In this document: positions 30,644 through 54,746 of the stretch, one piece after another
How the letters are laid out: every line of letters starts with the position of its first letter
How positions within the stretch are numbered: position 1 is the stretch's first letter
Assembly: GCA_964374105.1 (NCBI GenBank)
Contig: CAYJXI010000007.1
Coordinates: 13,096 to 77,095, forward strand
Source of the DNA: an uncultured Planctomycetales bacterium
GTDB taxonomy: Bacteria; Omnitrophota; Gorgyraeia; Zapsychrales; JANLHA01
Length of the DNA stretch: 64,000 nt
Direction of reading: 5' to 3'
Notes under the pieces: model-generated
Databases searched by the model: none
What the model saw: the letters and a program-made list of their open reading frames with translations, nothing else
Told to the model about the DNA's origin: nothing
Made by a program: the position numbers and the translations under genes

Positions 30644-30674
30644 TGCCAGGCTTATTTTAAAGGAGGGGAAAACG

Positions 30675-31061: not shown

Positions 31062-31073
31062 AAAAAAGACGGT

Positions 31074-31128: not shown

Positions 31129-31155
31129 CTAATATTTAAAATAAAGGACCACTAA

Positions 31156-31578
31156 ATGAATTTCCATTTCCCCATCCATCCTGTCTTCGTTCACTTTCCC
31201 ATTGCCCTATTTTTTGCCAGTCTGATTTTTGAGATGATGGGAATCATTTTTAAAAGAGAAGACTTGCATCAATGTGGATTTTGGGTTTTTCATTTGGCGG
31301 TCATCAGTACACCCTTAGCGGTTGTGAGTGGCCTCTGGGAGGCGAACAAACATCATCTTCACCATCCTGTTATAGATCTCCACAGAAATTTGGGTTTGTT
31401 GACGATGGGGGAAGCGATCTTCTTGACCCTCATCTTGTGGTATGTTAAAAAGCGCTTACCCTCTTTATTTAGAGGGGTGTATCTCATATCATTACTTCTG
31501 ATTGTTATGGCTGTGTTTTTAACCGCTTATCAGGGGGGACGTTTGGTTTATGAATATGCCATTGGAGTTGAACTATGA
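31156..31578 (+). CDS. DUF2231-family membrane protein
   Basis: HPVFVHFPIALF N-terminal motif and four TM helices. Confidence 0.5.
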   Translation: MNFHFPIHPVFVHFPIALFFASLIFEMMGIIFKREDLHQCGFWVFHLAVISTPLAVVSGLWEANKHHLHHPVIDLHRNLGLLTMGEAIFLTLILWYVKKRLPSLFRGVYLISLLLIVMAVFLTAYQGGRLVYEYAIGVEL

Positions 31579-32747
31579 AAAAAGATCCAATCTGCGGGAT
31601 GAATGTCGATGAGAAAAAGGCTTACCGCTTGATGACCCAAAATGCCGAAGCTATCTATTTTTGCAGCCAGCATTGCTTAGAAAAATTCGCAAAGCAAGAG
31701 AACATCAATTTGAAGGAAATCGCCATTTCCTGTTATCCAAAAGAAGCGGGTTGGTATTTGAACAAGACAGTTTGGGTGGCTGGGGTGTTGTTGGCATTGG
31801 GCGGGTTGTCTTATTATTTTCCTATTTTAATTCCTTTTAGAAACACGCTCCTTATGTATGTCCATACCATTTGGTGGGCTATTCTTTTGGGATTGATTTT
31901 GGGAGGCATCATCGATCATTTTGTCCCTCGGGAATATATCTCCCATGTCTTAGCCCGTCCTTCCAAACGAACGATTTTGCACGCCGTCACTCTGGGATTT
32001 TTTATGAGCGCCTGCAATCATGGGATCCTGGCTTTGTCCATGGAGCTTTATAAAAAAGGGGCCTCGACCTCCTCAGTCATTGCATTTCTTCTGGCAAGTC
32101 CGTGGGCCAATTTTTCCCTGTCCTTAATGCTTTTTGGATTATTCGGACTGCTTAAAACAATTTATATCATTTTGGGGGCGGTTGTCATCGCCATTGTCAC
32201 CGGATTGATTTATCAAATCCTGGAAAGAGAAAAATGGGTTGAGAAAAATGAAGGCAGTCTTGCTTTCAATGAGAATTATTCTATCCTTTCCGATTTTAAA
32301 ATTCGCTACCAAAATTATCATCTGACCCGACAACAAATCCTTGATGATTTAAAGGGAGTTTATAAAGGGATGATCTCCTTAGGGAATATGGTCCTCTGGT
32401 GGACCTTTCTGGGAATTGGCTTGGCCAGTTTTTTTGGAGCGTATGTTCCTGAGAAGTTTTTTCATCAATATATGGGTCCCACCGTTAGGGGAATGATGGT
32501 GACGCTGTTTGTGGCTACCGTTCTTGAGGTTTGTTCGGATGGCATGTCTCCCTTGGCTTTTGAATTGTATCGCCAAACCAAAGCCTTGGGAAATAGTTTT
32601 GTTTTCCTCATGTCCGGTGTTGTGACCGATTACACAGAGATTGGACTGATTTGGCAGAATATTGGTAAGAAGGCGGCCATTTGGTTACCGATCATTACTG
32701 TCCCTCAGGTGATTGTCTTAGGTGTTATTGCCAATTTAATTTTTTAA
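31575..32747 (+). CDS. YHS-domain fused to a DUF318/COG0701-type permease
   Basis: N-terminal DPICGMNVDEKKAYRL...YFCSQHC (YHS metal-binding motif) followed by about 340 aa of polytopic membrane protein resembling predicted permeases (two internal repeats). Confidence 0.55.
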   Translation: MKKDPICGMNVDEKKAYRLMTQNAEAIYFCSQHCLEKFAKQENINLKEIAISCYPKEAGWYLNKTVWVAGVLLALGGLSYYFPILIPFRNTLLMYVHTIWWAILLGLILGGIIDHFVPREYISHVLARPSKRTILHAVTLGFFMSACNHGILALSMELYKKGASTSSVIAFLLASPWANFSLSLMLFGLFGLLKTIYIILGAVVIAIVTGLIYQILEREKWVEKNEGSLAFNENYSILSDFKIRYQNYHLTRQQILDDLKGVYKGMISLGNMVLWWTFLGIGLASFFGAYVPEKFFHQYMGPTVRGMMVTLFVATVLEVCSDGMSPLAFELYRQTKALGNSFVFLMSGVVTDYTEIGLIWQNIGKKAAIWLPIITVPQVIVLGVIANLIF

Positions 32748-38087: not shown

Positions 38088-38834
38088 GTGGAAAATAAAA
38101 TGGAATCTCGTGGAAAAATACTTGTTGTGGACGATGATAAGACAATCACCACCCTTCTTGAGGCCAGGTTATCCGACTACGGTTTTCAAGTGATGTCTGC
38201 CTTTGATGGAATCGAGGCTATGGAAAAATATATTCACTTTGAACCAGATCTTATTATTCTTGATATATTGATGCCTCGGATGGATGGGTATACATTTGTT
38301 TTGGAATTCAAAAAGATTGCTAACATTAAAACTACACCTATCATTATCTTGACCTCTCGGGAGAATATGCAGGATATCTTTGAGATGGAAGGAATTAACG
38401 ATTACATGGTCAAGCCTTTTAAAATGGAAGATTTGTTACGAAAGATCAACAAACGGTTGATATCTAAGGAGAAAAAGATTTTGGTCGTTGATGATGAAGT
38501 TGATTTAGCCAACCTGATTGAATATCGTCTCACCCAAAGTGGTTATGATGTTTTTAAGGCCTACGACGGCCTGCAAGGATTGACCGCTGCCCAGCGAATG
38601 AATCCTGATTTAATGGTTATAGATGTGATGATGCCGAAATTGGATGGGTTTCGTGTCTGTCGCATGCTCAAATTTGACGAAAAATTTAAGAATATTCAGA
38701 TTGTTCTATTATCTTCTCTTCGACGAGAGAACGATCGAATTTTGGGCAAAGAAGTGGGCGCGGATGCCTATCTTACGAAACCCTACAATGGCAAAGTTCT
38801 TCTGCAGACCATGAAGGAATTATTGTGGGATTGA
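38088..38834 (+). CDS. Response regulator with two tandem receiver domains (no output domain)
   Basis: KILVVDDDKTITTLL...LDILMPRMDG and KILVVDDEVDLANLI...IDVMMPKLDG. Confidence 0.8.
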   Translation: MENKMESRGKILVVDDDKTITTLLEARLSDYGFQVMSAFDGIEAMEKYIHFEPDLIILDILMPRMDGYTFVLEFKKIANIKTTPIIILTSRENMQDIFEMEGINDYMVKPFKMEDLLRKINKRLISKEKKILVVDDEVDLANLIEYRLTQSGYDVFKAYDGLQGLTAAQRMNPDLMVIDVMMPKLDGFRVCRMLKFDEKFKNIQIVLLSSLRRENDRILGKEVGADAYLTKPYNGKVLLQTMKELLWD

Positions 38835-38935
38835 TTTCTCACGGGTCCATTTTATTCCCTCATTATCCCCAACACCCGGTGTTTGGGTGGTCGAATTTTT
38901 ATAAATATCATAGCAAAAAGCCTTGAGAATTTCCC

Positions 38936-40864
38936 ATGACTAAGAGATTGACCTACAAGGAACTACTAAACTATTATCAACTCTTTCAAGATTTCATGGA
39001 TCATATCCCGGATGTGATTTATTTTAAAGATACCAAGGGCAGGCTTATTTTAGTCAATGCGGCTCACGCCAAAGGGTTAGGGTTAAAACCAAAAGAAGTG
39101 GTTGGCAAAACAGATTTTGATATCTTCCCTTCCCAACGTGCCGAAAGGATGAACAAAGACGATCAATATGTCTTGAAGACAGGAAAACCGATCATCGATA
39201 AGATTGAGCGGGGCACCCGTCCGGATGGTGTAGATAATTATGTTTCCACAACCAAAATTCCTCGATTTGATAAAAAAGGACGCGTGACGGGATTAGTGGG
39301 GGTCACCCGGGATGTGACCAAACGCATGCAATTGGAACGTCTGCGGGAAGAACGAAAGCAAATCGAGAAGAAGCTTCAGATGCTGGAAGATTTAAATAAA
39401 CTGAAGTCAGAGTTTCTTTCTGCAGTTTCCCACGAATTAAGAACCCCTTTGGCCATCATCAAACAGCTGTTATTACTTATTTATGATGAAACCGTTGGGG
39501 AAATCAATGATAAGCAACGAGAAGTCTTGGTCAAAGCAAAGGAGAATATCGAACGGCTCAAAAGAATCATTGACCAATTGCTAGATATTTCTGCCATTGA
39601 AGGGAAACGGCTTAAATTGAATTATTCTTTGGTGAATTTTAATGAGTTATTTAAAGACTCCCAGGATTTTTTTAAAGAACAGGCTAAAAAGAAGAATATC
39701 AGATTGAAATATGACCTTCCCAAAAAGGAAATTAATATTTTTATTGATGTGGAGAGGGTGATCCAGGTCATTTCGAATCTCATTGAAAACGCCCTAAAGT
39801 ATACTGAGGAAAATGGCCAGATTATCGTTGAAGTTGATATGTTAGAAACCAAAGTCAGGGTCGGCGTTCATGATACCGGCATCGGGATTCCTAAGGCCCA
39901 TTTGCCAAAAATATTTGAGAAGTTTGTTCAAGTCGCAGAAAAAGACACCCCCGGGGCCAAGGGATTGGGTTTGGGATTAGCCATTGCCAAGGAAATCGTG
40001 GAGAAACATAGCGGAGAAATCTGGGCAGAATCCCAAGCGGGGGTGGGGAGCAAATTTTATTTTACTTTACCTCGATTTTTTACTGCTGATATCCTGGAGA
40101 AATCGATCAAAGATAAAATCAGGAATTTGTTAAATCAGGGAGCACCTGTCTATTTGATTAATCTATTGATTGTAAATTTTCAAGAATTTACCAGAAGAAT
40201 TGGTATCGGATCTCAACAATTATCTAGGGATTTGAAATCGATCCTTGATTCCGGCTTTAAGAGGTTCCCTAAGCTCAAGCATAATCAGATATTCATCAGT
40301 GATATCAAACACGGGAAATATAGCATTATTTTTCCAGAATCTTCTGAAAAGCGAGTCGTCACTTTCTGTGAGTTGATTAGAAATAGAACCAAGAATTATT
40401 TTAACAAACATAAAATTGAAGATGTCTTCATTGCCTTAGGGATTTTATCTTACCCGGCAATGGCCAAAGGAGTTAAGGAAGAGTTTGACAGAAATTTAAA
40501 CATCAAGGAAATCTATATTGGTTCAGAGGTGAGGCGTTTTAAGAGAATCAATTATAAAACCGATATACAAATTTCCCTCCCCAACGAGAAAGGGTATGTT
40601 TCTTCCACCATCGATCTTTCTTTGGGTGGGGTCTGTTTTTTGAGCCAAGAACTTTTAAAAACAGATGCCAAAATTAAAATGAAATTATTTCTTCTTAAGA
40701 AAAATACCCTCATTACGGCTTTAACCCGGGTCGCTTGGATTAGGAAAATGGATCTTTTACCCGGAGAAAATTTCCATCGATATAAGATAGGGCTTGAATT
40801 CATCAGAATGGATAGGCAAGATCGCAAATCCCTAGTGCAAGAGTTGAAATTATATTATGAATAA
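38936..40864 (+). CDS. PAS-domain sensor histidine kinase with C-terminal PilZ (c-di-GMP-binding) domain
   Basis: PAS (VIYFKDTKGRLILVNAAHAK...), H-box SHELRTPLAII, HATPase (HDTGIGIP, GLGLGLAIAKEIV). The C-terminus has RRFKRINYKTD...IDLSLGGVCF (RxxxR...DxSxGG, PilZ). Confidence 0.7.
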   Translation: MTKRLTYKELLNYYQLFQDFMDHIPDVIYFKDTKGRLILVNAAHAKGLGLKPKEVVGKTDFDIFPSQRAERMNKDDQYVLKTGKPIIDKIERGTRPDGVDNYVSTTKIPRFDKKGRVTGLVGVTRDVTKRMQLERLREERKQIEKKLQMLEDLNKLKSEFLSAVSHELRTPLAIIKQLLLLIYDETVGEINDKQREVLVKAKENIERLKRIIDQLLDISAIEGKRLKLNYSLVNFNELFKDSQDFFKEQAKKKNIRLKYDLPKKEINIFIDVERVIQVISNLIENALKYTEENGQIIVEVDMLETKVRVGVHDTGIGIPKAHLPKIFEKFVQVAEKDTPGAKGLGLGLAIAKEIVEKHSGEIWAESQAGVGSKFYFTLPRFFTADILEKSIKDKIRNLLNQGAPVYLINLLIVNFQEFTRRIGIGSQQLSRDLKSILDSGFKRFPKLKHNQIFISDIKHGKYSIIFPESSEKRVVTFCELIRNRTKNYFNKHKIEDVFIALGILSYPAMAKGVKEEFDRNLNIKEIYIGSEVRRFKRINYKTDIQISLPNEKGYVSSTIDLSLGGVCFLSQELLKTDAKIKMKLFLLKKNTLITALTRVAWIRKMDLLPGENFHRYKIGLEFIRMDRQDRKSLVQELKLYYE

Positions 40865-41234
40865 GAAAAGAATTCTTTTAGTTGATGATGAGAAGGATTT
40901 AGTCTATGCTGTGAAATTGCAGCTAGAGAAGAATTATTTTGAGGTTTTAACCGCTTATGATGGCCAAGAAGCCTTGGAAAAGGCCCGGGATGAAAATCCG
41001 GATATTATCATTTTGGATTTGATGTTGCCTAAGATCCACGGATACAAAGTATGCCGCATGTTAAAATTCGATGAAAAATACAAAGATATCCCCATTATCA
41101 TTTTTACCGCCCGCGCGCAGGAAAGTGATAAAAAATTGTCGTTTGAGGTAGGGGCGGATGCCTATATCACCAAACCCTTTGAGCCACAGATGTTGTTGGA
41201 TAAAATCAAGGACCTGTTGGATATACGCCCCTGA
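40857..41234 (+). CDS. Single-domain response regulator (PilH/CheY-like)
   Basis: RILLVDDEKDLVYAVKL...LDLMLPKIHG...IPIIIFTA. Confidence 0.8.
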   Translation: MNKKRILLVDDEKDLVYAVKLQLEKNYFEVLTAYDGQEALEKARDENPDIIILDLMLPKIHGYKVCRMLKFDEKYKDIPIIIFTARAQESDKKLSFEVGADAYITKPFEPQMLLDKIKDLLDIRP

Positions 41235-41253
41235 ATAAAAGAATAAAAGGTGA

Positions 41254-41285
41254 CAGTCCCGCCAAGGCGGGACTGTCATCTCAAT
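41254..41285. repeat. GACAG-core hairpin ggtgacagtcccgcc-aa-ggcgggactgtcatc between the regulator and pilB
   Basis: Perfect 15-bp stem with no U-tract. It gives the spurious mirror ORF starts MTVPP... on both strands. Confidence 0.45.
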
Positions 41286-41297
41286 CTGGGAGGCAAA

Positions 41298-42968
41298 ATG
41301 GATAAAACCAGAGAAGTAGTTGATTTATTAATTAAGGAAGGATTAATAACAGATGAGAATTTACAGAAAGCCAGGGAGGAATCCAAACGCACTGGTCTGC
41401 CGGTGGATAAGGCATTGGAAAAATTAGGTTTTATCAGTGATAAAGAAATTTTAAGAGTCCGTGCCTCGACCTTAAGTCTTCCCTATATTGATTTAGCGGA
41501 TTATATGATCGATAAAAGCCTTATTCCTTTGATCCCGGAACAAGTGGCAAAGAAATACAAGGCCGTTCCCCTTTTTCGGATCAATAATAGTTTAACGGTG
41601 GGGATGGTTGATCCGCAGGATGTGGCGGCCTTGGATCATATCCGCCGGGTAAGTCATATGGACATGATTGAACCGGTTTTGATTTCAGAGAAAGGAGTCC
41701 AGCTTGTCCTAGATACCTGTTATACCGCCGAAGAAACTTTTGAAGACATTGTCCGGTCCATAGACAAAGAAAAGATTCAGGAGTCCGATCGCAAAGGTTT
41801 GGTGGAAGTTGCGGAAGATGCCCCGGTTATCAAATTGGTGAATAACATCATCAGCCAGGCCATTAAAGATCGAGCCTCGGATATTCATATGGAACCAGAA
41901 GAGGACAGTGTTAGAATCCGTATCCGAATTGATGGTTTATTAAATGAAATGGCCGTTTTCCCCAAGAAACTCCAAAATGCCCTTGTCTCCCGAGTGAAGG
42001 TCTTAGCGAAAATGGATATTGCCGAGAGCCGAAAACCCCAAGATGGGAGAATCCGACTGAAGATGGAGAATAAAGATTTGGATATGCGGATTTCCACATT
42101 CCCGACCGTTCATGGAGAGAATGTGGTGATGAGATTATTGGATAAATCTTCGGTGGTGATGGGGTTGAAGGAATTGGGCTTATTGGAAGAAGACCTTCAG
42201 ATGTTTAACAAATTAATCCGACGACCCCATGGGATTATCTTGGTGACCGGTCCCACGGGGAGTGGGAAAACAACGACCCTTTATACGGCCTTATCCACGA
42301 TCAGTTCCATGGAAAAAAATATTGTCACCATCGAAGACCCGGTGGAGTATGAACTGCCGTTGATTCGCCAGACCCAGGTCAACACAAAAGCGGGAATTAC
42401 CTTTGCCAATGGATTAAGAAGTCTTTTAAGACAGGATCCAGATGTCATGATGGTGGGGGAGATCCGTGATAAAGAAACCGCCGAAGTCGCTATTCAGGCT
42501 TCCTTAACCGGACATCTTGTTTTCGCTACTCTTCATACCAACGATGCCCCATCCTCCTTGACCAGACTGATTGATATGGAGATTGAATCCTTTCTCATTT
42601 CCAGCTCTATTGTGGGAATCATCGCGCAGCGGTTGGTCAGATTAATCTGCGATAAATGCAAAGAAAGATATGAGCCCACAGCAGAGGTGATAAAGGAATT
42701 GGGGATTACGGAAAAAATGGAATTTTCTCACGGAAAAGGATGTCATCATTGTAAAAAGACAGGATTTATAGGACGAAGTGGAATTTTTGAGATCCTTACC
42801 CTTAATGATGAGATAAGAAGGATGATTGACCAAAGAAGTTCCGCGGACGATATCAAAAAGAAAGCAATCACGTTAGGCATGAAAACATTAAGAAAGGATG
42901 GCCTTATCAAAGTCCAAAAAGGAATAACCGTTCCTGAGGAAGTATTGAGGGTAACGGAAATTGAATGA
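41298..42968 (+). CDS. pilB: Type IV pilus assembly / type II secretion ATPase (PilB/GspE family)
   Basis: N-terminal T2SSE_N domain, Walker A GPTGSGKTTTLY, Asp/His boxes, and a tetracysteine zinc motif CDKC...CHHC. Confidence 0.9.
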   Translation: MDKTREVVDLLIKEGLITDENLQKAREESKRTGLPVDKALEKLGFISDKEILRVRASTLSLPYIDLADYMIDKSLIPLIPEQVAKKYKAVPLFRINNSLTVGMVDPQDVAALDHIRRVSHMDMIEPVLISEKGVQLVLDTCYTAEETFEDIVRSIDKEKIQESDRKGLVEVAEDAPVIKLVNNIISQAIKDRASDIHMEPEEDSVRIRIRIDGLLNEMAVFPKKLQNALVSRVKVLAKMDIAESRKPQDGRIRLKMENKDLDMRISTFPTVHGENVVMRLLDKSSVVMGLKELGLLEEDLQMFNKLIRRPHGIILVTGPTGSGKTTTLYTALSTISSMEKNIVTIEDPVEYELPLIRQTQVNTKAGITFANGLRSLLRQDPDVMMVGEIRDKETAEVAIQASLTGHLVFATLHTNDAPSSLTRLIDMEIESFLISSSIVGIIAQRLVRLICDKCKERYEPTAEVIKELGITEKMEFSHGKGCHHCKKTGFIGRSGIFEILTLNDEIRRMIDQRSSADDIKKKAITLGMKTLRKDGLIKVQKGITVPEEVLRVTEIE

Positions 42969-43009
42969 TCTGAGCAGGCTTAAGTTTTAAACCTTTTTTA
43001 AGGTCAAGC

Positions 43010-44224
43010 ATGACCACCTACCATTATAAAGCGCGGGATCAATTTTCCAAATCACTGGAAGGCATCATGGCCGCGGAATCAGAGAATGCCGTGGCCTTAA
43101 AGTTAAAACAGATGGGCTATATCCCCATTTCCATCATTCAGACTAGGGGAAAACAGAAATTTGATTCGATCTTTGACGGGTTAAGAGGGATTAAGTCTTC
43201 GGAGTTGAATATGTTTAGTCGACAACTATATGCCCTCCAAAAAGCAGGGCTCCCCCTTTTAGGTAGTCTCATGGCCCTGCGGGATCAGGCCGCCAACAGA
43301 ACCTTTAAGAATGTTTTGGGACAAATAATAAGAGATATTGAAGGAGGGGTTAATTTATCATTGGCCCTCGAAAGTCATCCGCGGATTTTTGACAACATCT
43401 ATGTTAATATGATCCGATCTGGAGAAGTCTCGGGACGATTGTCGGAGATTTTAGAAAGGCTTACCTCATTGGGAGAACGTGATGAAAAAATCCGCTTAAG
43501 GATTAAAACCGCTTTGCGTTACCCTATGATTGTTGTTTTGGCTATTACCATTGCCTTTATAATTCTGATTATAGTGGTGTTGCCTAAATTTGCCCAATTG
43601 TACAGCCAGTTTAAAACGCAACTTCCTCTGCCAACACGGATTCTTATAGGTTTAAATTTCTTCCTTACCCATTATTGGTGGTTAATAATCATTTTATTAA
43701 TATTGGGGAGTATTGCTTTTATCGCTCTGATCAGAACCAAAAAGGGAAAATATTATTGGGATCAATTGAAATTGCGACTTCCTATTTTTGGGCCGTTGTT
43801 GTTAAAATTGGCCCTCTCCCGATTTGGACGAATCAACGGAACCCTTATGAAAAGTGGAGTGCCTTTGTTACAGATTTTGGATTTGGTTGCTGAAGGCGAA
43901 GGGAATGTGATCATTTCAAAAACTTACACCCAAGTCAAAAAGAGCGTCAATGAAGGCAAGGGGATGCTTGAGCCGATGAAGACCAGTGGATTATTCCCGC
44001 CGGTTGTAACCCAGATGGTGGCGGTGGGGGAGGAAACCGGAAAACTGGATGAGTTGTTATTGCATGTGTCCGATTATTATGATACTGAGATTGATTATAC
44101 CATTAATAATCTGGTGACACTGATTGAACCCATCTTAACTTTTTTTTTAGCCATTGTTGTTCTTTTCATTGCTTTAGGGGTCTTCATGCCGATGTGGAAT
44201 ATGATCCATTTGTATAAGAGATAA
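43010..44224 (+). CDS. pilC: Type IV pilus assembly inner-membrane platform protein PilC/GspF
   Basis: Two T2SSF repeats, 3 TM segments, 404 aa. Confidence 0.9.
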   Translation: MTTYHYKARDQFSKSLEGIMAAESENAVALKLKQMGYIPISIIQTRGKQKFDSIFDGLRGIKSSELNMFSRQLYALQKAGLPLLGSLMALRDQAANRTFKNVLGQIIRDIEGGVNLSLALESHPRIFDNIYVNMIRSGEVSGRLSEILERLTSLGERDEKIRLRIKTALRYPMIVVLAITIAFIILIIVVLPKFAQLYSQFKTQLPLPTRILIGLNFFLTHYWWLIIILLILGSIAFIALIRTKKGKYYWDQLKLRLPIFGPLLLKLALSRFGRINGTLMKSGVPLLQILDLVAEGEGNVIISKTYTQVKKSVNEGKGMLEPMKTSGLFPPVVTQMVAVGEETGKLDELLLHVSDYYDTEIDYTINNLVTLIEPILTFFLAIVVLFIALGVFMPMWNMIHLYKR

Positions 44225-44231
44225 AGGAAAA

Positions 44232-44276
44232 AGGGGACAGCGCCCTTTAAAGAAAGGGTGCTGTCCCCTTTTTCAC
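44232..44276 (+). terminator. Rho-independent terminator after pilC (GACAG-core family)
   Basis: ggggacagcgccc-tttaaagaaa-gggtgctgtcccc followed by ttttt. Confidence 0.55.
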
Positions 44277-44436
44277 GGAGCGGAATAGTTTTAAGCAAAA
44301 TTGAAAGCGTTTTCTTAAATTTTCACTGATTTGAGAAATTTTTTGTCTCACCTTGACTTTAATTTTTTTAGATAGTATATTTATAACGTAAAAGATCAAT
44401 TTGGTTTGATGAAAAAGGTAAACCATTCGTAAGAAT

Positions 44437-44560
44437 GGGGCCCCCCGCGAAAAGCGGAGGCCCCCGCTGAACTTAAAGCGGGGGACAAAGCTAGAGGGTC
44501 CTGCTTCCGCGAAGCCTGACTGCGTCAGGCAGACGGCGGGATAGCCAGCTGCCATCAATG
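44437..44560. repeat. Cluster of GC-rich hairpins (cccccgct...agcggggg; gcctgactgcgtcaggc; contains gcgaagc) upstream of the pilin gene
   Basis: Three or more short perfect stems in about 120 nt; the surrounding DNA is AT-rich. Confidence 0.4.
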
Positions 44561-44713
44561 TGGATTTCAACTTAGAAACTAAAGGCCTATTCTACGAATG
44601 TGGAATAGGCCTTAAATATTTTGTGGGGAGCAAGAAAATTAAATTTAAACACCCCTTAAAAAGAAAAACGAAGTATAATAAATTTGAATTTGTAAAGCAA
44701 AAGGAGGAAAGAG

Positions 44714-45088
44714 ATGAATAACAAAAGCGGGTTTACATTGATCGAGTTGATCATGATCATTGTGATCATTGGTATTTTGGCTATTGTTGCGATCCCACAG
44801 TATCGTGATCTATCGAATCAAGCCAATCAGGCTGCGGAAGATGGTGTCGTGGGGGCGGTGCGCTCAGGGATATTAGCGTCTTTCGCCCAGAATAGGGTAT
44901 TCCCGGCTACTTTAGATACGGTTGCCGCTGGTGGCTCCTGTATTGCTGGTAGTCCTTGCTTTGACAATGTCCTGGCTCAGGGTGGCCTAAGTACAGGCGG
45001 TTGGACGAAGAATGCCGCTGGGAATTATGTGGCACCGGATGGGACGGTTTATGTGTATTCCGGACCCCCGAATGGGACATTTCAATAA
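44714..45088 (+). CDS. pilA: Type IV pilin (prepilin with N-terminal methylation motif), probable major pilin
   Basis: MNNKSGFTLIELIMIIVIIGILAIVAIPQY is the class III signal peptide: G|FTLIE with Glu at +5. Confidence 0.8.
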   Translation: MNNKSGFTLIELIMIIVIIGILAIVAIPQYRDLSNQANQAAEDGVVGAVRSGILASFAQNRVFPATLDTVAAGGSCIAGSPCFDNVLAQGGLSTGGWTKNAAGNYVAPDGTVYVYSGPPNGTFQ

Positions 45089-45214
45089 TAAAGTGATTTT
45101 TGCCTGAAATTTAATTCATTTTTATTATATTGATTCCCCTGCCTATTTGATGTTTAATAGGCAGGGGGATTTTCGTTTTTGAATAATGCATTTGTTAAAT
45201 AGGGAAGATAAAGA

Positions 45215-46036
45215 GTGAATCCTTTCCAAAGACGTGGTTTCATTCTGTTAGCCTTCATTATCCTTCTTGTCTTTGCCTCCCTTGCCGTTTTGGGTGTAAC
45301 GTTCTTAGTGACCCAACGGCTTTCCTTTGTCGTTACCCAACAGATTCAAGCCTCCTGCATTGATCTTGCCCATGCGGGAATCCATCAAGCTATCTATTTC
45401 TATCGCGAGAGGGATAGAACCGGAAACGGTTATTTTAGTCTGGGACAAACTAACATCGATGCTAATAATTTTTTCGTGCTGGGAGGGGGGGGATCTTTAG
45501 TCGATTTATTAATGGTGAATACCTCCCAAACAAGGATTCAAAACCGTTTTTTAAACCGTTTATATCTTCAGAATGCGACGAATTCCCAACCCATAACGAT
45601 CGATAGCATGTTAGTTACTTGGACCAATCCCAATCCGCAGAGGAGACTCAACCGGATTCGGATTCGCCCCCGGCCAACCGGGGGATGGACTACGGTTTGG
45701 AGCAATGGGGGTCAGAATGGAGGGTTATTTTCACCCGTGAATGCTAATATTAGTGATTACAGTCTTAATACCACACCCAGTACTTATGAAGTGGAGTTAA
45801 GATTCAGCGGGAATTTACCTCCTGACACAACGATCATTGATATTCAATTTAGTATGACAGATGGGTCTACAAAAGCATTAAGGGTTTATAATGGGGGGGC
45901 CGCTCTCAATAATTTTAATTTCAATTTCACGGTTAGATCAACGGGAAGAACCAGCGGTTCCAATATCTATCGGACTATCTCAGCAGAGTATAATGCCTTA
46001 ACTGGAAGGATCATCAGTTACAATGAGATTAATTAA
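45215..46036 (+). CDS. PilX-N-terminal-domain-like pilus assembly protein
   Basis: MNPFQRRGFILLAFIILLVFASLAVLGV...QQIQASCIDLAHAGIHQAI resembles the PilX_N domain. Confidence 0.4.
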   Translation: MNPFQRRGFILLAFIILLVFASLAVLGVTFLVTQRLSFVVTQQIQASCIDLAHAGIHQAIYFYRERDRTGNGYFSLGQTNIDANNFFVLGGGGSLVDLLMVNTSQTRIQNRFLNRLYLQNATNSQPITIDSMLVTWTNPNPQRRLNRIRIRPRPTGGWTTVWSNGGQNGGLFSPVNANISDYSLNTTPSTYEVELRFSGNLPPDTTIIDIQFSMTDGSTKALRVYNGGAALNNFNFNFTVRSTGRTSGSNIYRTISAEYNALTGRIISYNEIN

Positions 46037-46451
46037 GAAATCACATCATGATCGAATAGGGAAATGGACAAACGTCCTTGGATTGACTTTAGTTGAACTC
46101 ATCATGACCATTGTGGTGGTGAGTATCCTTGCGATTCCTTTAGCCCTCCTTTTAAGGGAACATATTGAAGGGGCATTTCAATCCCAGGATGACACAACAG
46201 CACTCAATTTAGCGCGAAAGGAAATGGAAACAGTCAAGAATATGAGTTATGATAATATCCTCATTGGGAATTTTAATTTACCTCCTGAACAGGGTTTTGA
46301 TAAAGAAAGACGTGTGAGATATGTTCAGGGATCCGGTTCAACACAAGAAAGACTGAAAGAAATTCGAGTGAACATAAGAAGATCAGGAGATCCCTCTGTC
46401 CTTTTTAGCTTGGTCACGTATCTGGCCAGGAATGTGAGTTATGGAATTTAA
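46023..46451 (+). CDS. Minor pilin / pseudopilin (prepilin-type N-terminal cleavage/methylation domain)
   Basis: GLTLVELIMTIVVVSILAIPLAL. Confidence 0.6.
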   Translation: MRLIKKSHHDRIGKWTNVLGLTLVELIMTIVVVSILAIPLALLLREHIEGAFQSQDDTTALNLARKEMETVKNMSYDNILIGNFNLPPEQGFDKERRVRYVQGSGSTQERLKEIRVNIRRSGDPSVLFSLVTYLARNVSYGI

Positions 46452-46998
46452 ATACAAGAAAGGGTTTACATTTGTCGAAGGGCTGATGGTTATCGTGATC
46501 ATCGCTATTTTAGCTGCCTCAGGAGCCGTGCTTTTGATCTCTTTTGTCCAAAATGAAGTCTTTGTCCCTAGTCAGCTTAAGAGTGGTATGGTCGCCGCGG
46601 AAGCGTTAGAGATTATGATTGAAGGAGACAATCAGGCTAAGGGATTGAGAACGAGCCGGATAGTGACCAATATCCAAGATTATCAAGTGACATTTATCAA
46701 TCAAGACAACCAGACTGTCCGCTTTCGATTAGATACGGGTTCAAACAAATTGTATCGATCTATCAATGGGGGTCAGGAAACCCTAATTCCCTATTACGTC
46801 GCTCCCGCGATGAATATGCTGGTACAAAATAATCGTTTGTTTACTTATTTTGATGCCGCTGAGATTATAACAACTGATCCTGCCAATGTGCGAAGAATAG
46901 AGGTGACTCTTATAGCGAGAACTGGGAGCGGTTCGTATACCGATTGGGAAGGGCAGACCGAGTTGACGTCAGCGGTTGCGGTTAAAAAATTTCAATAA
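46441..46998 (+). CDS. Minor pilin / pseudopilin (prepilin-type)
   Basis: KKGFTFVEGLMVIVIIAILAA. Confidence 0.65.
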   Translation: MEFKYKKGFTFVEGLMVIVIIAILAASGAVLLISFVQNEVFVPSQLKSGMVAAEALEIMIEGDNQAKGLRTSRIVTNIQDYQVTFINQDNQTVRFRLDTGSNKLYRSINGGQETLIPYYVAPAMNMLVQNNRLFTYFDAAEIITTDPANVRRIEVTLIARTGSGSYTDWEGQTELTSAVAVKKFQ

Positions 46999-47004
46999 GC
47001 AGTA

Positions 47005-47043
47005 GGGGCGACCCCTGCCTGCCGGACAGGCAGGGGTCGCCCT
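47005..47043. repeat. Long perfect hairpin ggggcgacccctgcctgcc-gga-caggcaggggtcgccc after the pilin genes (GCCTGNC...CAGGC family)
   Basis: About 17-bp GC-rich stem with no U-tract. Confidence 0.45.
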
Positions 47044-47131
47044 TACGCCTAAACGCATGTTAGCAGCGAGAGATTTAGGAACTTCCCCTCGTGGTCAAAA
47101 ACTTTTTTAACAAAACACTGAAAAAAACCAA

Positions 47132-48751
47132 ATGAAACGATTAAACTTTCTTCCTTCCAAAGGACGAAGATTTTTAGCCATCGATTTTGGCCATTCCCGA
47201 GTGGTGATAACGCATGTGTCTTTGGTGTTTGATCGATATAAGCTCCTCCATTATGAAATCAAAGAGGTTGTGCCCAAAAGAGAAAATGAAAAGGAAGATA
47301 TCCCCAATTTTATTATCGGTTTTATCAAAAAGAATTCCATCCGGCACAGGGATGTCATTTTAAGCATTTCTGATCTTGATTCGGTGGCGATTAAAACTTT
47401 AATTTTACCGGAATTGCCGGAAAGGGAAATTCCTAAGGCGGCCAAATGGCAGTTGAAAGAAGAAGTCCCGTTCGATCTGGAGGAGGCCTTGATCGAATGG
47501 CAGATCCTTGATCAATTTTTTGATAATGAGAATATCAAGAAAAGCAGGATTATTTTTATTGCGATTGAGAAACGAATCGCGGACCGATATTTATCCATTC
47601 TTGCCCAATGTCGACTTCGACCTTTAAGCATCGTGAGCGGGTTTTTCAATTTCGCTCATCTTTTAAAGACCTTTCCTAAAATCCTTGAGAATGTGGCTGT
47701 TCTGGATTTGGATGATAAAGATTCCAGCCTAGGCATTTACTGTCATAGCAAATTAAATTTCGTAAGAAGACTCCCTATCGCTATGGAGAAACTTACCGAA
47801 TCATTAACCAATGTAGTCGTGACCGAAAAAGGAAAGATGGAATTGACTTTACAAGAGGCCAAAGAGATTGAAAATACGATCGGGATCCCTTTAGAAGAAT
47901 CCCAAATCCTCAAAGATCAAATTGAAGCTTCCCATATCATTCCCCTGATTCGTCCCCACCTTGAGACCTTGGTTCGGGAGATCAAATCTTCTTTCTACTA
48001 TTTTACTTCCAACTTTGGTATTGAACGCGCCAGCCAATTGTTCTTAACGGGTAAAGGTGCTTATTTAAAGAATCTTGATTCCTATTTATCCAAGGAGTTG
48101 GGAATTAAAGTCTCGCTGTTTCCCTGGCCACCGACATTGGAGAAAAGCGTCACAAAAAATAAAGGATTGCTGCTTCCAGATGAGCTGAAGATATCGAAAT
48201 GTTTGGGGGCGACCTTAGGGTTAACCCAAGGGATCAATGTCCTACCATTGGATTTAAAGACAAAGAATGTTGAAATTTTTCAGAAGGCACTGGTGAGAAT
48301 CATTTCGATTACATTAACGATCGTCTTATCGTTTCTTATTTTTATAACGGAATTTCAGATCAAGGATTACCAAAATCGGTTAAGCAATGCCCAAACCCAA
48401 TTAACGATCATCAGCGGAATTAAGTATTTAAAAGTGGGAATCAAAGGCTACGAGGAACTCATTGATAAAATTCAATATCATGAGATCCCCACCCACGGGA
48501 TTTTAAAGGTCCTTAGCAATACCATCCCCGAGGAGATAATCTTAGATGAATTTGTTTGGTATCGCGGCAATGCGCAAATGATCTTGAAAGGTAAGGTTTT
48601 AACCAAGGAAGATCAAAATCAATCTGTTTTAACGCATTTCATGGAGCGGCTGGAGAGATCACAGTTTATAACGGATGCGGTGCTTGTTTCTTCCAACAAA
48701 GGTGTGGGGATCCAGATTTTTGAAATCCGATGTGATCTCCTCCACAATTAA
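47132..48751 (+). CDS. pilM: PilM (actin-like ATPase) fused to PilN-like TM/coiled-coil domain
   Basis: N-terminal FLAIDFGHSRVVIT... actin-like fold (about 350 aa). A TM helix (LVRIISITLTIVLSFLIF) and a PilN-like periplasmic domain follow. Total 539 aa. Confidence 0.65.
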   Translation: MKRLNFLPSKGRRFLAIDFGHSRVVITHVSLVFDRYKLLHYEIKEVVPKRENEKEDIPNFIIGFIKKNSIRHRDVILSISDLDSVAIKTLILPELPEREIPKAAKWQLKEEVPFDLEEALIEWQILDQFFDNENIKKSRIIFIAIEKRIADRYLSILAQCRLRPLSIVSGFFNFAHLLKTFPKILENVAVLDLDDKDSSLGIYCHSKLNFVRRLPIAMEKLTESLTNVVVTEKGKMELTLQEAKEIENTIGIPLEESQILKDQIEASHIIPLIRPHLETLVREIKSSFYYFTSNFGIERASQLFLTGKGAYLKNLDSYLSKELGIKVSLFPWPPTLEKSVTKNKGLLLPDELKISKCLGATLGLTQGINVLPLDLKTKNVEIFQKALVRIISITLTIVLSFLIFITEFQIKDYQNRLSNAQTQLTIISGIKYLKVGIKGYEELIDKIQYHEIPTHGILKVLSNTIPEEIILDEFVWYRGNAQMILKGKVLTKEDQNQSVLTHFMERLERSQFITDAVLVSSNKGVGIQIFEIRCDLLHN

Positions 48752-48753
48752 AT

Positions 48754-49329
48754 ATGGAAAGAGATCTTACCCCCTCTCAGAGAAAGATTTTTATATTGGC
48801 GATACTGCTGGGGGTTGTGTTTTTCCTGGTTTGGATATTCATTGTTATCCCTCGGCAGATAACTTTAAGTCGTATGAAAGAAGAGTTGAAATCTATTCAA
48901 AATCAAATTTTGGAAATCGAGTCGATCGTACCTAAAGATGCAAAAATTGATCAGGTCATACGGGCTTTTGATGAAGAGAAACAACGTCTCGTTTCCAAAT
49001 TTCCCAATCGGGATGAAGAGGGAATCAAAATGCTTTCTGACTATGCGCGTAAGTTTAACATTGAAATCGTTTCTCTGCGATCGCAGACCAAGGTATTATT
49101 TTTTGACCGGGATCAAAAGAAAGTTGAGATTGAGGGAAAAAACTGTTATCAAGTTCTTGTATCGATCGAGTTGAAAAGTCAATTTAAGAATCTGGTTCAA
49201 TATCTTCAGGATTTAAAAAAGACATTCCCCCGCTACATCACGTTAGAAAAAGTGAAAATCAATAAAGATTTTTCTTCTCCCAACTCGTTGTATGTAACCG
49301 TGGACCTTTATTTGTATCTTTTAACTTGA
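48754..49329 (+). CDS. pilO: PilO-like pilus assembly protein
   Basis: Single N-terminal TM and a coiled-coil (LSRMKEELKSIQNQILEIES). Its position after pilMN supports the call. Confidence 0.55.
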   Translation: MERDLTPSQRKIFILAILLGVVFFLVWIFIVIPRQITLSRMKEELKSIQNQILEIESIVPKDAKIDQVIRAFDEEKQRLVSKFPNRDEEGIKMLSDYARKFNIEIVSLRSQTKVLFFDRDQKKVEIEGKNCYQVLVSIELKSQFKNLVQYLQDLKKTFPRYITLEKVKINKDFSSPNSLYVTVDLYLYLLT

Positions 49330-49330
49330 G

Positions 49331-49771
49331 ATGAAAAGTAAGGAAAAAATTGAAGTTGGGGTAACCGTAATCTTAATTATCATATTCTGTTTTCTTTTCT
49401 TTTGGACTGTCTTTAAGAAAAATAATTCCCAACCTTTATTAAAGGGCATTCCATCTCCCCCTTTGAATCTCGTTATTTATAATCCTCAATCAGTTAAAAA
49501 TTTATATAAAACCCTTGAAGAAGAGATTCTCAATCAAGAAATCCCTAGGGATCCTTTCTACAAAGTGCCGGTCATCGCAAGCGATGAGACCCCCAAATTG
49601 ATCTTGTATGGCATTGCTTGGGATGAGAATAAACCAACGGCGATGATTAATAATGAAATTGTAGAAGAGGGAAGTACCATCCTTGGCTATAGTGTGGTGG
49701 CTATCAAAGAAGATCGCGTTATTCTTCTGGACAATGAAAATAAAATATTAGAATTGGTGATTGGGCCTTGA
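49331..49771 (+). CDS. pilP: PilP-like pilus assembly lipoprotein/periplasmic protein
   Basis: N-terminal TM/signal, RDPF motif, and a C-terminal beta-domain GIAWDENKPTAMINNEIVEEGSTILGYSVVAI. Confidence 0.45.
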   Translation: MKSKEKIEVGVTVILIIIFCFLFFWTVFKKNNSQPLLKGIPSPPLNLVIYNPQSVKNLYKTLEEEILNQEIPRDPFYKVPVIASDETPKLILYGIAWDENKPTAMINNEIVEEGSTILGYSVVAIKEDRVILLDNENKILELVIGP

Positions 49772-49800: not shown

Positions 49801-50460
49801 TTAATCCGTAATATGATGCTTAATCACCTTTCCATCGACCATATAGATCACATCCTCGCAGATGTTGGTGGAATGATCCGCAACCCTTTCTAAGTTTTTG
49901 GCGACCAAGATCAAATCAATCACCCGTTCCACGGGCGATTGGTCTTCCGGCTTGGCCTTCAATATTTCCATGAAAATTTCATGATTGAGATCATCCACTT
50001 CGTCATCGCGTTTGCAGACTTCGTAAGCCAGCTTGGAATCTTTATTGACAAAGGCATTGAGGCTGTCTTTAAGCATCCCTTGGGCGGCCTGCGCCATTTT
50101 AGGAATGTTGAGTCGCAATTTGAGCGGAGGGACTTTTAATAAATCTAACGTTCTTTGCGCAATGTTGACCGCGAGATCCCCGATCCTTTCTAGGTCACTG
50201 TTGATCTTCAGGGTGGAGGTGATAAAGCGAAGATCTCCCGCTGTCGGTTGATACAAGGCAAGAAGTTTTAAACAAAGTTCATCGATCTCAATTTCCAGGA
50301 GATTGACGGCATCATCCGATTTGATCACCTTGTAAGACAATTCGGCATCTCGTTCCATCAAGGCCTTGATAGAGGAGCTGATGCTCTCTTCCACAAGTCC
50401 ACTCATTCTTAAAAGTTTTTCTTTTAAGTTCCTTAAGGCCTCATCAAAATGACGTTGCAT
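49801..50460 (-). CDS. phoU: Phosphate signalling complex protein PhoU
   Basis: Two PhoU repeats (...DLERIGDLAVNIA... / ...NLERVADHSTNIC...). Confidence 0.9.
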   Translation of the reverse strand: MQRHFDEALRNLKEKLLRMSGLVEESISSSIKALMERDAELSYKVIKSDDAVNLLEIEIDELCLKLLALYQPTAGDLRFITSTLKINSDLERIGDLAVNIAQRTLDLLKVPPLKLRLNIPKMAQAAQGMLKDSLNAFVNKDSKLAYEVCKRDDEVDDLNHEIFMEILKAKPEDQSPVERVIDLILVAKNLERVADHSTNICEDVIYMVDGKVIKHHITD

Positions 50461-53837: not shown

Positions 53838-54746
53838 TTATTGGACGGGAACAAAATCAATCTGACGAATAATCTGTTGCCCTTCTTTACTTAAAATAAA
53901 ATCTATAAATTCTTTAACGATCCCTTGCGGTTCTCCATTGGTATACATAAGAAGGGGCCGAGAGATATAGTATTGACCGCTTTTTACATTTTCAATTGTA
54001 GGGAGGATAAAGGGGCTGTTTTTATCCTTGGCAATGGCAAGGATTTTTTGAGTGGAATTGGCATAACCCATCCCATAATAGCCAATGCCATTTGGGTTTT
54101 GATTGATTTCATCCGCAATGGCCTGGGAGGAAGGCATCAATAATGCCCCTTGTGCAAATTCTTCTTTGCGGGATTCATCTCCTCCTCTTAAAACATGCTC
54201 CTTAAAATAAACATGGGTCCCGGAATTAACTTCCCGGGATAAAAGAACGATGGGGGTGTCAACGCCTCCAACTTCTTTCCAATTCTTAATTTTCCCTGTG
54301 AAAATGTCAGCGACCTGATCGACCGTCAATTGAGTCACAGGATTTTGCGGGCTAACGACAACGGCCAACCCATCCAAGGCCACAGTTAATTCTTTGGGTT
54401 CAATCCCATTGGTTCGAGCTTGAACTAATTCCTTGTCTTTCATTTTACGGGAAGTAGCGGCAAGATCGCATGTCCCATTGAGCAGGGCGGCAATGCCGGT
54501 GCCGGATCCCCCTCCTGTCACGGCTACAAAAGCGTTTGGATTTTTTTTCATAAAACCTTCAGCCCAGGCTTGCCCCAGATTAACCATTGTATCGGATCCT
54601 TTGATCTGAATGGAATGGGCGGAATCAGAGGAATGGCCTGATCGTGAAGAATCATTCAATGATTCGCGGGTGGTATTTCGTTCGCAAGCAGAAAGCAATC
54701 CGATGCAGAGTAATAAAGATATCAATAAATTTTCAGAAATCTTCAT
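53838..54746 (-). CDS. pstS: Phosphate-binding protein PstS (lipoprotein)
   Basis: Lipobox LLSAC, then a PBP superfamily fold (TGGGSGTGIAAL...). Confidence 0.85.
   Translation of the reverse strand: MKISENLLISLLLCIGLLSACERNTTRESLNDSSRSGHSSDSAHSIQIKGSDTMVNLGQAWAEGFMKKNPNAFVAVTGGGSGTGIAALLNGTCDLAATSRKMKDKELVQARTNGIEPKELTVALDGLAVVVSPQNPVTQLTVDQVADIFTGKIKNWKEVGGVDTPIVLLSREVNSGTHVYFKEHVLRGGDESRKEEFAQGALLMPSSQAIADEINQNPNGIGYYGMGYANSTQKILAIAKDKNSPFILPTIENVKSGQYYISRPLLMYTNGEPQGIVKEFIDFILSKEGQQIIRQIDFVPVQ

Follow-up and report, generated by a model that had tools for sequence, protein, structure and literature searches.

Among described type IV filament systems, the type IV pilus (T4P) locus of C. 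difficile (pilA1-pilB1-pilC1-pilMN-pilO...) encodes PilM and PilN as one fused protein (PMC6916266), and its major pilin gene is directly preceded by a cyclic di-GMP (c-di-GMP) riboswitch, Cdi-2-4, which acts via transcription termination (PMC6366702). Architecturally, a fusion of PilM with PilN corresponds to GspL of the type II secretion system (T2SS), with PilO as the counterpart of GspM and PilP as that of the HR domain of GspC (PMC4471445). Clusters of the type IVa pilus (T4aP) occur in nearly all Omnitrophota, where they were typed as T4aP by TXSScan, and T4a pili are expressed by V. archaeovorus (Seymour et al. 2023). Because term searches of the main text and supplementary files of that study returned no mention of secretin, PilT or PilQ, the PilMN fusion and the regulation of the Omnitrophota cluster appear, as far as the searched text goes, not to be described there. 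Here we analyse one such cluster in a stretch of 64,000 nucleotides (the window, to whose first letter window coordinates refer) from contig CAYJXI010000007.1 of assembly GCA_964374105.1, a Candidatus Omnitrophota metagenome-assembled genome (MAG).

The cluster (Table 1) comprises, in this order, genes for a REC-REC regulator, a PAS-kinase-PilZ protein, a single REC, PilB and PilC, then a 489-bp gap, and genes for a pilin, three pilin-like proteins, a PilMN fusion, a PilO-like protein and a PilP-like adaptor. All its open reading frames (ORFs) were found where a preliminary description of this DNA had placed them, and the Pfam domains agreed with the gene order, the convergent end on phoU and the view, put forward there, of a type IV filament cluster with a sensory module, here of the two-component kind, at its head. 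We read the region as a T4aP-like cluster typical of Omnitrophota, with its secretin encoded elsewhere and c-di-GMP sensed by the PilZ kinase and by a riboswitch-like RNA, and give this reading a probability of roughly 0.7. About 40 related loci with the same cluster (given L numbers below) were collected from species representatives, a metagenome scan and exact look-ups, and share the synteny REC-PilB-PilC-pilin-p273-two minor pilins-PilMN-PilO-p146, in which p273 is a pilin-like protein of 273 amino acids (aa) and p146 is the adaptor. An identical PilMN protein is encoded on a contig of MAG GCA_947085705.1, and all 17 relatives of PilMN in species-representative genomes belong to Candidatus Omnitrophota or to MAGs labelled Planctomycetes that carry the same cluster; the label on such MAGs is a mislabelling. 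The locus is thus a normal Omnitrophota pilus cluster, not an unusual one, and the earlier term 'non-canonical' was overstated: the same cluster recurs across the Omnitrophota, PilMN forms a large family and the fusion is known from C. difficile.

The window shares with the C. difficile locus the fusion of PilM and PilN, a riboswitch-like element directly upstream of the major pilin gene, and a PilB whose nearest labelled relative is clostridial (Acetoanaerobium). C. difficile, however, is monoderm and lacks a secretin and PilP, whereas the host of the window is diderm, as judged from window genes for an OEP and a Cus-type RND efflux pump as well as a porin, and has an HR-like adaptor. Furthermore, the C. 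difficile riboswitch belongs to class II and the window element is class I-like with a 43-nt insertion, and the PilZ kinase and CheY-like REC upstream of pilB set the window apart.

PilMN matched both Pfam PilM_2 and Pfam PilN, as well as TIGR pilM (NCBIfam). Structure prediction of the fusion, one of the checks proposed in the preliminary description, gave an AlphaFold2 model (pLDDT 78.6) with an actin-like PilM domain (residues about 1-345), an INVLP motif (368-372), a transmembrane (TM) helix (387-406), a coiled coil or long helix, and a ferredoxin-like PilN domain (457-536). Its top Foldseek matches were the PilM proteins of P. aeruginosa, Thermus and Myxococcus (5EOU, 2YCH and 3JC8_M; target-normalised TM-score up to 0.71-0.75), and no GspL was among the top 50. 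The motif is conserved as IN(L/V)(L/I/A)P in most PilMN homologues, and we take it to correspond to the N-terminal PilN peptide bound to PilM in 5EOU, an entry titled PilM:PilN1-12. The fusion is not an oddity, because a profile search against 1.84 billion representatives returned 687 family members at E <= 1e-30, and most of the best 150 of these 687 matches span both halves. A gene for the PilO-like bitopic protein follows pilMN in all loci.

The adaptor p146 on its own gave no Pfam match, and none to PilP in particular. It aligned with the protein in the PilP position of the pilMNOPQ module of L015 at an hhalign probability of 97.5%, and its orthologues showed weak but recurrent matches to T2SSB (15/16), CdsD_C (11/16) and T2SSC (8/16). 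An HR-like domain and the RDPF motif are retained in every cluster. By these features the protein is a predicted secretin adaptor of the PilP/GspB/GspC-HR type, which would fit 'PilP' in function; the earlier name holds as far as the GspB/GspC-HR-like domain, and no further.

In agreement with the earlier report of a cluster without a secretin or retraction ATPase, no secretin, PilT or prepilin peptidase was found among the window ORFs of at least 120 aa, and tblastn with three Omnitrophota secretins gave no match in the window. Peptidase_A24 was absent from the same ORFs and from the annotated related loci, and there is no second T2SSE-family gene in the window or beside any related cluster. 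A short PilB paralogue at the start of L026 was considered as PilT and rejected, since NCBIfam identifies it as FlaI/TadA-like, that is, as part of another system.

Loci with at least 2 kb of sequence downstream of the adaptor were taken as informative (n = 22). A PF00263 secretin follows the adaptor after 15-350 bp in four of them (L018, L021, L044 and L047; L021 is the closed genome CP070684.1) and, in two (L015 and L037; in L037 the secretin alone was detected, at about 3 kb), sits in a second module beside the cluster, at a distance of 3-6 kb downstream, leaving 16 of the 22 with no secretin downstream. The module of L015 (11102-18935), directly downstream of the fused cluster, contains a second set of pilin-like genes together with unfused PilM, PilN, PilO, PilP and secretin. 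The L037 secretin (about 15630-17339) is 79% identical to that of L015, and no second pilB or pilC is visible in either locus; this arrangement suggests two alignment complexes sharing one ATPase, one platform and one secretin. A module of PilM-PilN-PilO-PilP-secretin-AAA_22 ATPase-small protein was also found, beside pilBC in L049 and on its own within a stretch of housekeeping genes in L059. In L044 (12279-13543), L049 (9565-10886), L057 (4492-5782) and L059 (7562-8859), the genes after the secretin encode an AAA_22 ATPase of 265 aa and a protein of 156-175 aa; the smaller protein has a weak or faint CdsD_C-like match in three of the four, and the pair presumably resembles the secretin-assembly factors GspA/GspB (ExeA/ExeB). 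With the L044 secretin as query, the Omnitrophota secretin family gave 1374 matches at E <= 1e-30 (identity 55-81% in the 120 listed).

The secretin of the window's host is probably encoded elsewhere in the genome and would still be used, because the secretin-adaptor-type domain is retained and a secretin follows the adaptor in some relatives. The ancestral cluster, as we read it, ended in a secretin gene, and most lineages, this one included, lost the adjacency. That the filament of this lineage has no secretin, being periplasmic or, as the preliminary description had also considered, taking another route through the outer membrane, would be in line with the 64-kb window and with the 16 of 22 informative clusters that have none nearby. 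It is, however, hard to reconcile with an adaptor whose HR-like domain and RDPF motif are kept in every cluster, and with a secretin family that is abundant and strongly conserved in Omnitrophota, placed after the adaptor in four lineages and in a separate module in others. We therefore regard a different outer-membrane route as very improbable and a secretin elsewhere as the most likely of the explanations given earlier. Four candidates for the secretin of this MAG itself (P0034, P0120, P0054 and P0048) all proved to come from other MAGs.

The major pilin has a prepilin leader with Glu at +5, and the GspG, ComGC and PilA models match its N-terminus only (GspG 34.2 against a cutoff of 88.85, NCBIfam). 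The next gene encodes p273, which lacks the Glu at +5 and has no Pfam or NCBIfam match. Its AlphaFold2 model (pLDDT 91.9) consists of a 65-residue N-terminal helix and a beta-sandwich head, and in the PDB it found only weak fold matches, to a modular streptococcal pilin, archaellins and adhesin Ig domains. Neither GspK nor PilX was among the 50 PDB fold matches listed, and GspK was not found by sequence; the earlier designation 'PilX-like' is thus not borne out at the level of fold. Homologues of p273 (n = 68) are, where named, all from Omnitrophota or Omnitrophica, save one labelled '[bacterium]', most hits carrying no taxon name. Some orthologues have insertions of roughly 90-220 aa in the head (L005 7631-8722, L008 4041-5282, L010 1268-2737), which are Cys-rich and repeat-like in L005 and L008, and because of these large insertions p273 is suggested to be a variable tip, adhesin or surface module. 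An additional gene for a GspG-like pseudopilin (104-138 aa) lies between pilC and the major pilin gene in L007 (6659-7075), L015 (5353-5757), L020 (6838-7236), L026 (7271-7585) and L037 (7135-7533), as recognised by an NCBIfam GspG match for L015 and by BLAST for L026 and L037. The window has no such gene, the riboswitch-containing gap being in that position.

The pilC-pilin gap (44225-44713) was confirmed to contain GC-rich hairpins; it measures 489 bp instead of 490, and the hairpin noted earlier is part of an aptamer resembling the c-di-GMP-I riboswitch. At the same pilC-pilin position, a genuine c-di-GMP-I riboswitch is present in L005 (60.2 bits against a gathering score of 35), and the site equivalent to the promoter in the window reads TTGACA-17-TATATT there. 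Like c-di-GMP-I (GEMM-I) riboswitches (RF01051, clan CL00126), the window element has the P1-P2-P3 layout, with P1 formed by 44406-44411 and 44553-44558 and P2 by 44423-44428 and 44433-44438, a GNRA (GUAA) loop on P2, the AAAGG(U/C)AAAC and ACAAAGC junctions and the AGCCAGCUGCC 3' strand. Unlike them, it carries a GC-rich 43-nt, two-hairpin insertion (44442-44484) at the P2 bulge, followed by an extended P3 about 14 nt longer, and it scores below the gathering threshold; accordingly it was not reported by an Rfam scan run at that threshold. In a MAFFT alignment of the full aptamer, the insertion was paired with the J1/2-P2 half of the L005 riboswitch (GAAAAGCGGAGGCCCCCGCU...AGCGGGGGACAAAGC vs GAAAAGGGUAAACUGCCU...AGGCAGGGCACAAAGC). 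This pairing hints that the insertion arose by partial tandem duplication of the aptamer's 5' half; it is not a repeated element within the window.

Since MAFFT mis-paired the insertion with P2, the structural alignment with L005 was made after removing it. All 26 modelled pairs are standard in both sequences, seven of them with compensatory double changes (five in the GUAA-capped P2), and slid control alignments reached 27-53% paired only. The bases aligned to Vc2 G20, C44, A47, G83 and C92, in what we take to be the Vc2 sequence and numbering, are the same in the window and L005, a soft test in that MAFFT was used for the 5' half and the 3' half was aligned by eye. Folded without constraints, 44404-44560 gives a minimum-energy structure with P1, P2, two GC hairpins that the insertion forms by itself and, where P3 would be, a helix that does not consist of the modelled pairs; the folding z-score of the element is -3.4. 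A hairpin follows downstream of the aptamer, and L005 has a stronger hairpin with U6 at the same place. Folds computed to derive an ON/OFF logic gave no clear one, the downstream hairpin being present in every state.

It is possible, though we consider it the less probable explanation, that this RNA is a decayed c-di-GMP-I remnant disrupted by the insertion, so that control would run via the PilZ kinase only. A score far under the gathering threshold, the location of the insertion in the P2 bulge beside the ligand-pocket junction, the absence of the element from most related loci, including the closest relative L013, and folds that offer no exclusive alternative to the downstream hairpin would all be expected of such a remnant. 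A decayed element would be harder to square with 26 intact pairs and seven compensatory changes, with a retained GUAA loop and the same bases at the positions that we equate with those of Vc2, with an insertion that forms self-contained hairpins while the minimum-energy fold still closes P1, and with promoter hexamers and a downstream hairpin that are likewise conserved with L005. The riboswitch is a sporadic addition, because no further copy was found in about 38 loci.

The second predicted c-di-GMP receptor is the PilZ domain at the C-terminus of the soluble sensor kinase, whose H-box is SHELRTPL. The domain scored 50.6 bits in Pfam (cutoff 22.5), its motifs RRFKR (RxxxR) and DLSLGG (DxSxxG) are intact, and both are kept in four orthologous kinases (L005, L011, L013 and L026), which supports its assignment as a canonical PilZ domain. 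The roughly 140 aa between HATPase_c and PilZ (residues about 390-530) are conserved in the orthologues from L011, L013 and L026 and gave no Pfam match (E <= 10, four orthologues) and no PDB sequence match; the idea, formed by eye, of a degenerate GGDEF domain in this region was dropped on these results. The kinases differ between related loci, and an orthologue of the REC-REC protein was found only in L013 (64% identity); its second receiver has the motif CRMLKFDEK(Y/F)K in common with the single REC. In L037, a stand-alone PilZ protein of 109 aa (3886-4215; RRAKR, DISATG) is encoded between REC and pilB, an alternative way to attach a PilZ sensor to the cluster. About 9 kb downstream of the cluster, the window encodes a PAS-GAF-GGDEF protein with an intact GGDEF motif, a possible source of c-di-GMP for the PilZ kinase and the leader RNA.

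Of the regulators in the cluster, the single REC is the one most tightly tied to pilB. All 15 loci that show the region before pilB encode a REC homologue (52-78% identity) at most about three genes upstream of it; the best-matching one (61-78%) abuts pilB in most of them and lies one or two genes further upstream in L007, L015 and L017. The protein retains the conserved acidic pair, the TAR threonine and the KPF lysine, and its nearest solved structures are generic receiver domains. The most economical model is a CheY-like REC that is controlled by phosphorylation and would have PilB or the PilM ring as its target, the kinases differing from lineage to lineage; in the window, the kinase would combine a PAS signal with c-di-GMP. 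This model presumably resembles the action of PilG/PilH in the Pil-Chp system, in which we claim no membership for it.

Direct binding of c-di-GMP by PilB is unlikely. Its N-terminal domain belongs to the same fold family as that of V. cholerae MshE (67 bits to 5HTL; Pfam MshEN), in which c-di-GMP is bound by two tandem 24-residue motifs of the form RLGxx(L/V/I)(L/V/I)xxG(L/V/I)(L/V/I)xxxxLxxxLxxQ or, relaxed, [RKPN]hGxxhhxx[GAS]hhxxxxhxxxhxx[QNKRYWST] (Wang et al. 2016, PMC5013675). The window reads EVVDLLIKEGLITDENLQKAREES in motif I and PVDKALEKLGFISDKEILRVRAST in motif II, and in comparison with MshE both motifs have lost the Arg/Leu-Gly start and the terminal Gln, reading EVV...S and PVD...T in place of RLG...Q. 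The motifs are degenerate, failing the relaxed form too, in all 11 Omnitrophota PilB proteins aligned (the window and ten orthologues), and Gly3 is swapped in all 11, for Val/Ile in motif I and for an acidic residue (Asp/Glu, occasionally Asn) in motif II. Because both motifs are without the defining residues, and Gly3 is missing even for the relaxed form, the MshEN-type domain appears to have lost c-di-GMP binding; the protein scored 34.4 for NF053729 (cutoff 38). The earlier proposal of a c-di-GMP-responsive system is therefore plausible via the PilZ domain of the kinase and the riboswitch-like RNA, and not via PilB.

PilB also bears on the class of the system. Its nearest labelled relative is the T4aP PilB of Acetoanaerobium (46% identity overall; annotated plasmid and chromid records), which keeps the MshEN RLG motif and has an adjacent PilT, neither of which holds for the window, and whose locus encodes PilM and PilN separately. 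Against PDB sequences, Thermus PilF and the PilB proteins of Geobacter and Myxococcus (474-485 bits) scored above Vibrio GspE (421-429 bits). In the core (376 columns), identity was highest to Acetoanaerobium PilB (55%), followed by two GspE proteins (50-51%), a PilF-like protein from Deinococcus (50%) and a PilB homologue from Aeromonas (45%), which we take to be TapB, the record being unannotated there. In a neighbour-joining tree with few labelled references, indicative only as its branch supports are unusable, the Omnitrophota PilB clade stands next to clostridial PilB. As to the phylogeny called for in the preliminary description, this tree points to the clostridial PilB; by its sequence, PilB of the window falls between T4aP PilB and T2SS GspE and not firmly inside either. 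According to that description, a canonical pilQ-pilT set elsewhere and a PilB clustering firmly within T4aP would make the locus ordinary; about half of this picture was recovered. As regards the start of PilB, the ORF from a GTG spans 41250-42968, and the ATG at 41298 is most likely the start, being the one chosen in the public gene call, and the GTG before it is covered by a 16-bp hairpin.

The most fitting label for the system is T4aP-like, with the genes laid out in a single operon as in a T2SS. With the classical diderm T4aP of Myxococcus xanthus, Pseudomonas aeruginosa and Thermus thermophilus it shares the PilM fold, G-1/F+1/E+5 prepilins, a PilN INLLP-type motif, a PilP-like adaptor and a PilB that is closest in the PDB to Thermus PilF and Geobacter and Myxococcus PilB. 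It differs from them in that PilM and PilN form one polypeptide, a single operon-like cluster holds all genes but those for the secretin, PilT and PilD, the c-di-GMP motif of MshEN is lost, the minor pilin set is another one and p273 has no PDB homologue.

Several points weigh against the reading that we favour. On the side of the machine, PilB reached neither the NCBIfam cutoff for GspE (611.1, cutoff 630.25) nor that for PilB (TIGR02538; 606, cutoff 675.65), PilC was likewise below cutoff for GspF (345.8 bits, cutoff 424) and for Thermus-type PilC (335.2 bits), the assignment of PilO is weak, and the secretin of the relatives (TIGR PilQ 236 bits) scores about equally for T2SS and T4aP models, below the equivalog cutoff. 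No secretin, PilT or prepilin peptidase of this MAG was located, the placement of the secretin elsewhere being drawn from relatives. On the side of regulation, REC and PilB are connected only by gene adjacency, and the aptamer matched Rfam c-di-GMP-I-GGC (RF03167) over its full length (44408-44557) at 27.8 bits, short of the gathering score of 59 (E = 1.8e-4 for 531 nt and 6.5e-5 for 196 nt, scaled to 64 kb roughly 0.02). The 43-nt insertion at the P2 bulge is next to the ligand-pocket junction, among about 38 loci Rfam and our own covariance model found c-di-GMP-I copies in only two, the window and L005, and in constrained folding the downstream hairpin formed whether or not P1 was closed.

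The same scores, which marginally favour GspE (611 vs PilB 606) and GspF (346 vs PilC 335), raise the alternative of a T2SS-like machine, in which a short pseudopilus would push proteins, perhaps giant proteins and hydrolases of the secreted kinds typical of Omnitrophota, through a secretin and no long surface pilus would be made. The gene order resembles gspE-F-G-...-L-M, and the fuller clusters of L021 and L044, reading E-F-G-(four pilin-like)-L-like fusion-M-like-C-like-D, resemble a T2SS operon. An AAA_22 ATPase and a small protein, which we liken to GspA/GspB, stand after the secretin in L044, L049, L057 and L059, the adaptor matches T2SSB and T2SSC rather than Pfam PilP, some relatives have the GspG-like pseudopilin between pilC and pilin, and PilT is absent from the window and from every locus examined, the short ATPase of L026 being FlaI/TadA-like. 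The large and giant secreted proteins typical of Omnitrophota are usually flanked by T2SS/T4P genes (bioRxiv 10.64898/2026.06.07.730766), and 14 kb upstream of the cluster the window contains an ORF of 3341 aa whose N-terminus resembles a signal peptide. We nevertheless consider a T2SS unlikely: the cytoplasmic domain of PilMN is matched by PilM structures, with no GspL among the top 50, and by Pfam PilM_2 and TIGR pilM; the core of PilB is closer to the clostridial T4aP protein (55%) than to GspE (50-51%); the equivalog cutoffs for GspE, GspF and GspG are all unreached; p273 is not GspK-like and the adaptor has no PDZ domain or coiled coil; and the published typing by TXSScan is T4aP, with expressed T4a pili in V. 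archaeovorus.

By analogy with T4aP and T2SS machines, PilB of the favoured T4aP-like cluster would power polymerisation of the 124-aa pilin on the PilC platform, the three pilin-like proteins, among them the beta-sandwich-headed p273 without Glu5, would prime or tip the fibre, and PilMN, the PilO-like protein and the PilP/GspC-HR-like adaptor would form the inner-membrane alignment complex. The conserved C-terminal domain of the adaptor implies that the machine still docks onto a secretin, the gene for which may lie in a separate unfused pilMNOPQ-AAA_22 ATPase module of this genome. The intergenic signals suggest two transcription units, the first comprising the regulators and pilBC and ending at a strong hairpin, the second the pilin operon with its own promoter-like site, the c-di-GMP-I-type aptamer and a terminator-like hairpin. 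c-di-GMP is probably sensed twice: the RNA aptamer would gate transcription of the pilin operon, and the soluble PAS kinase, through its PilZ domain, would adjust phosphotransfer to the CheY-like REC, which may then act on PilB or the machine. Control of the cluster by c-di-GMP, other than through PilB, is supported.

A bolder proposal, about which we are doubtful, is that the fused-PilMN cluster is a distinct Omnitrophota filament system that borrows the secretin, and perhaps PilD and PilT, of the unfused pilMNOPQ module and adds a layered c-di-GMP circuit, consisting of an insertion-tolerant class-I aptamer and a PilZ kinase signalling to a CheY-like protein that acts on PilB. If this were true, such a layered circuit would be one not described for any pilus, the class-I aptamer, by accommodating 43 nt with two hairpins in its P2 bulge, would represent a new structural subtype, and the PilZ kinase-CheY route would functionally replace the direct MshEN binding lost by PilB.

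The remaining features of the window are listed in Table 1. The hairpins at the REC-pilB junction and before pilMN could be RNA processing or stability elements. Further short islands of at least 75% GC are located at 11086-11138, 11338-11379, 25158-25197, 31075-31131 and 54485-54524, in a genome of about 41% GC, and may be structured RNAs or hairpins. In two relatives the cluster contains inserted small ORFs of 118-131 aa (L006 5604-5999, L011 4107-4463), which by eye are like the four-helix-bundle '23S rRNA intervening sequence' proteins.

Table 1. Features of the pilus cluster and its surroundings, in window coordinates (a slash in a prepilin leader precedes position +1).
Feature	Position	Strand	Basis and remarks
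ORF of 3341 aa, signal-peptide-like N-terminus	13776-23801	+	no Pfam match at 1e-5
Copper/silver-type efflux cluster	24603-32747	+	OEP, CusB-like protein with heavy-metal-binding domain, RND pump, YHS-domain proteins, ArsP-type permease
REC-REC regulator, no output domain	38088-38834	+	Pfam Response_reg twice; public gene call starts at 38100
Soluble sensor kinase: PAS, HisKA, HATPase_c, region of about 140 aa, C-terminal PilZ	38936-40864	+	Pfam
Single CheY-like receiver	40857-41234	+	Pfam Response_reg, 99.8 bits
16-bp inverted repeat, REC-pilB junction	41248-41281		inverted-repeat search; covers upstream GTG; no T run
PilB-type extension ATPase, N-terminal MshEN-fold domain	41298-42968	+	Pfam T2SSE, 462.9 bits, and MshEN
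PilC/GspF platform protein	43010-44224	+	Pfam T2SSF twice, 179.6 bits
22-bp hairpin flanked by A and T runs, terminator-like, end of pilBC unit	44227-44274		inverted-repeat search
Sigma-70-like promoter for pilin operon, TTGACT-17-TATATT	44353-44381	+	consensus match only
c-di-GMP-I riboswitch-like aptamer	44406-44558	+	sub-threshold Rfam match
14-bp hairpin then AAATATTTTG	44582-44613	+	candidate expression platform or terminator of the riboswitch
Major pilin, 124 aa, leader MNNKSG/FTLIE, Glu at +5	44714-45088	+	Pfam N_methyl
15-bp hairpin and T run after pilin gene	45133-45170	+	attenuator or terminator-like
Pilin-like p273, 273 aa, RRG/FILLA, no Glu at +5	45215-46036	+	no Pfam or NCBIfam match
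Minor pilin, G/LTLVE	46023-46451	+	N_methyl, E 1e-3; syntenic orthologues
Minor pilin, KKG/FTFVE	46441-46998	+	N_methyl and TIGR02532; syntenic orthologues
20-bp GC-rich hairpin, no T run, between last minor pilin and pilMN	47002-47046		inverted-repeat search
PilM-PilN fusion	47132-48751	+	Pfam PilM_2, E 1.4e-13; PilN, E 1e-3
PilO-like bitopic protein	48754-49329	+	Pfam PilO, E 6e-4, below cutoff
PilP/GspC-HR-like adaptor p146, 146 aa	49331-49771	+	N-terminal TM helix, RDPF motif, C-terminal beta domain (alignment)
phoU	49801-50460	-	cluster ends convergently on it; pst genes next on the minus strand
PAS-GAF-GGDEF protein	59125-60534	+	GGDEF motif intact

Omnitrophota are uncultured, mostly ultra-small and thought to be attached to or to prey on other cells, with pili as the main candidate organ of attachment (Seymour et al. 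2023). The present analysis does not overturn current views of type IV filaments, the PilMN fusion and the control of a pilin gene by a riboswitch having precedents in C. difficile. What is new is that the common pilus cluster of this phylum has a fused PilMN and usually no secretin gene of its own, yet keeps a secretin adaptor; that a CheY-like receiver is invariably linked to pilB; that in some lineages c-di-GMP would enter via a PilZ kinase and a riboswitch, and not via the MshEN domain of PilB; and that the leader is riboswitch-like with an insertion and the MshEN motif degenerate. These points give handles on when Omnitrophota cells make pili.

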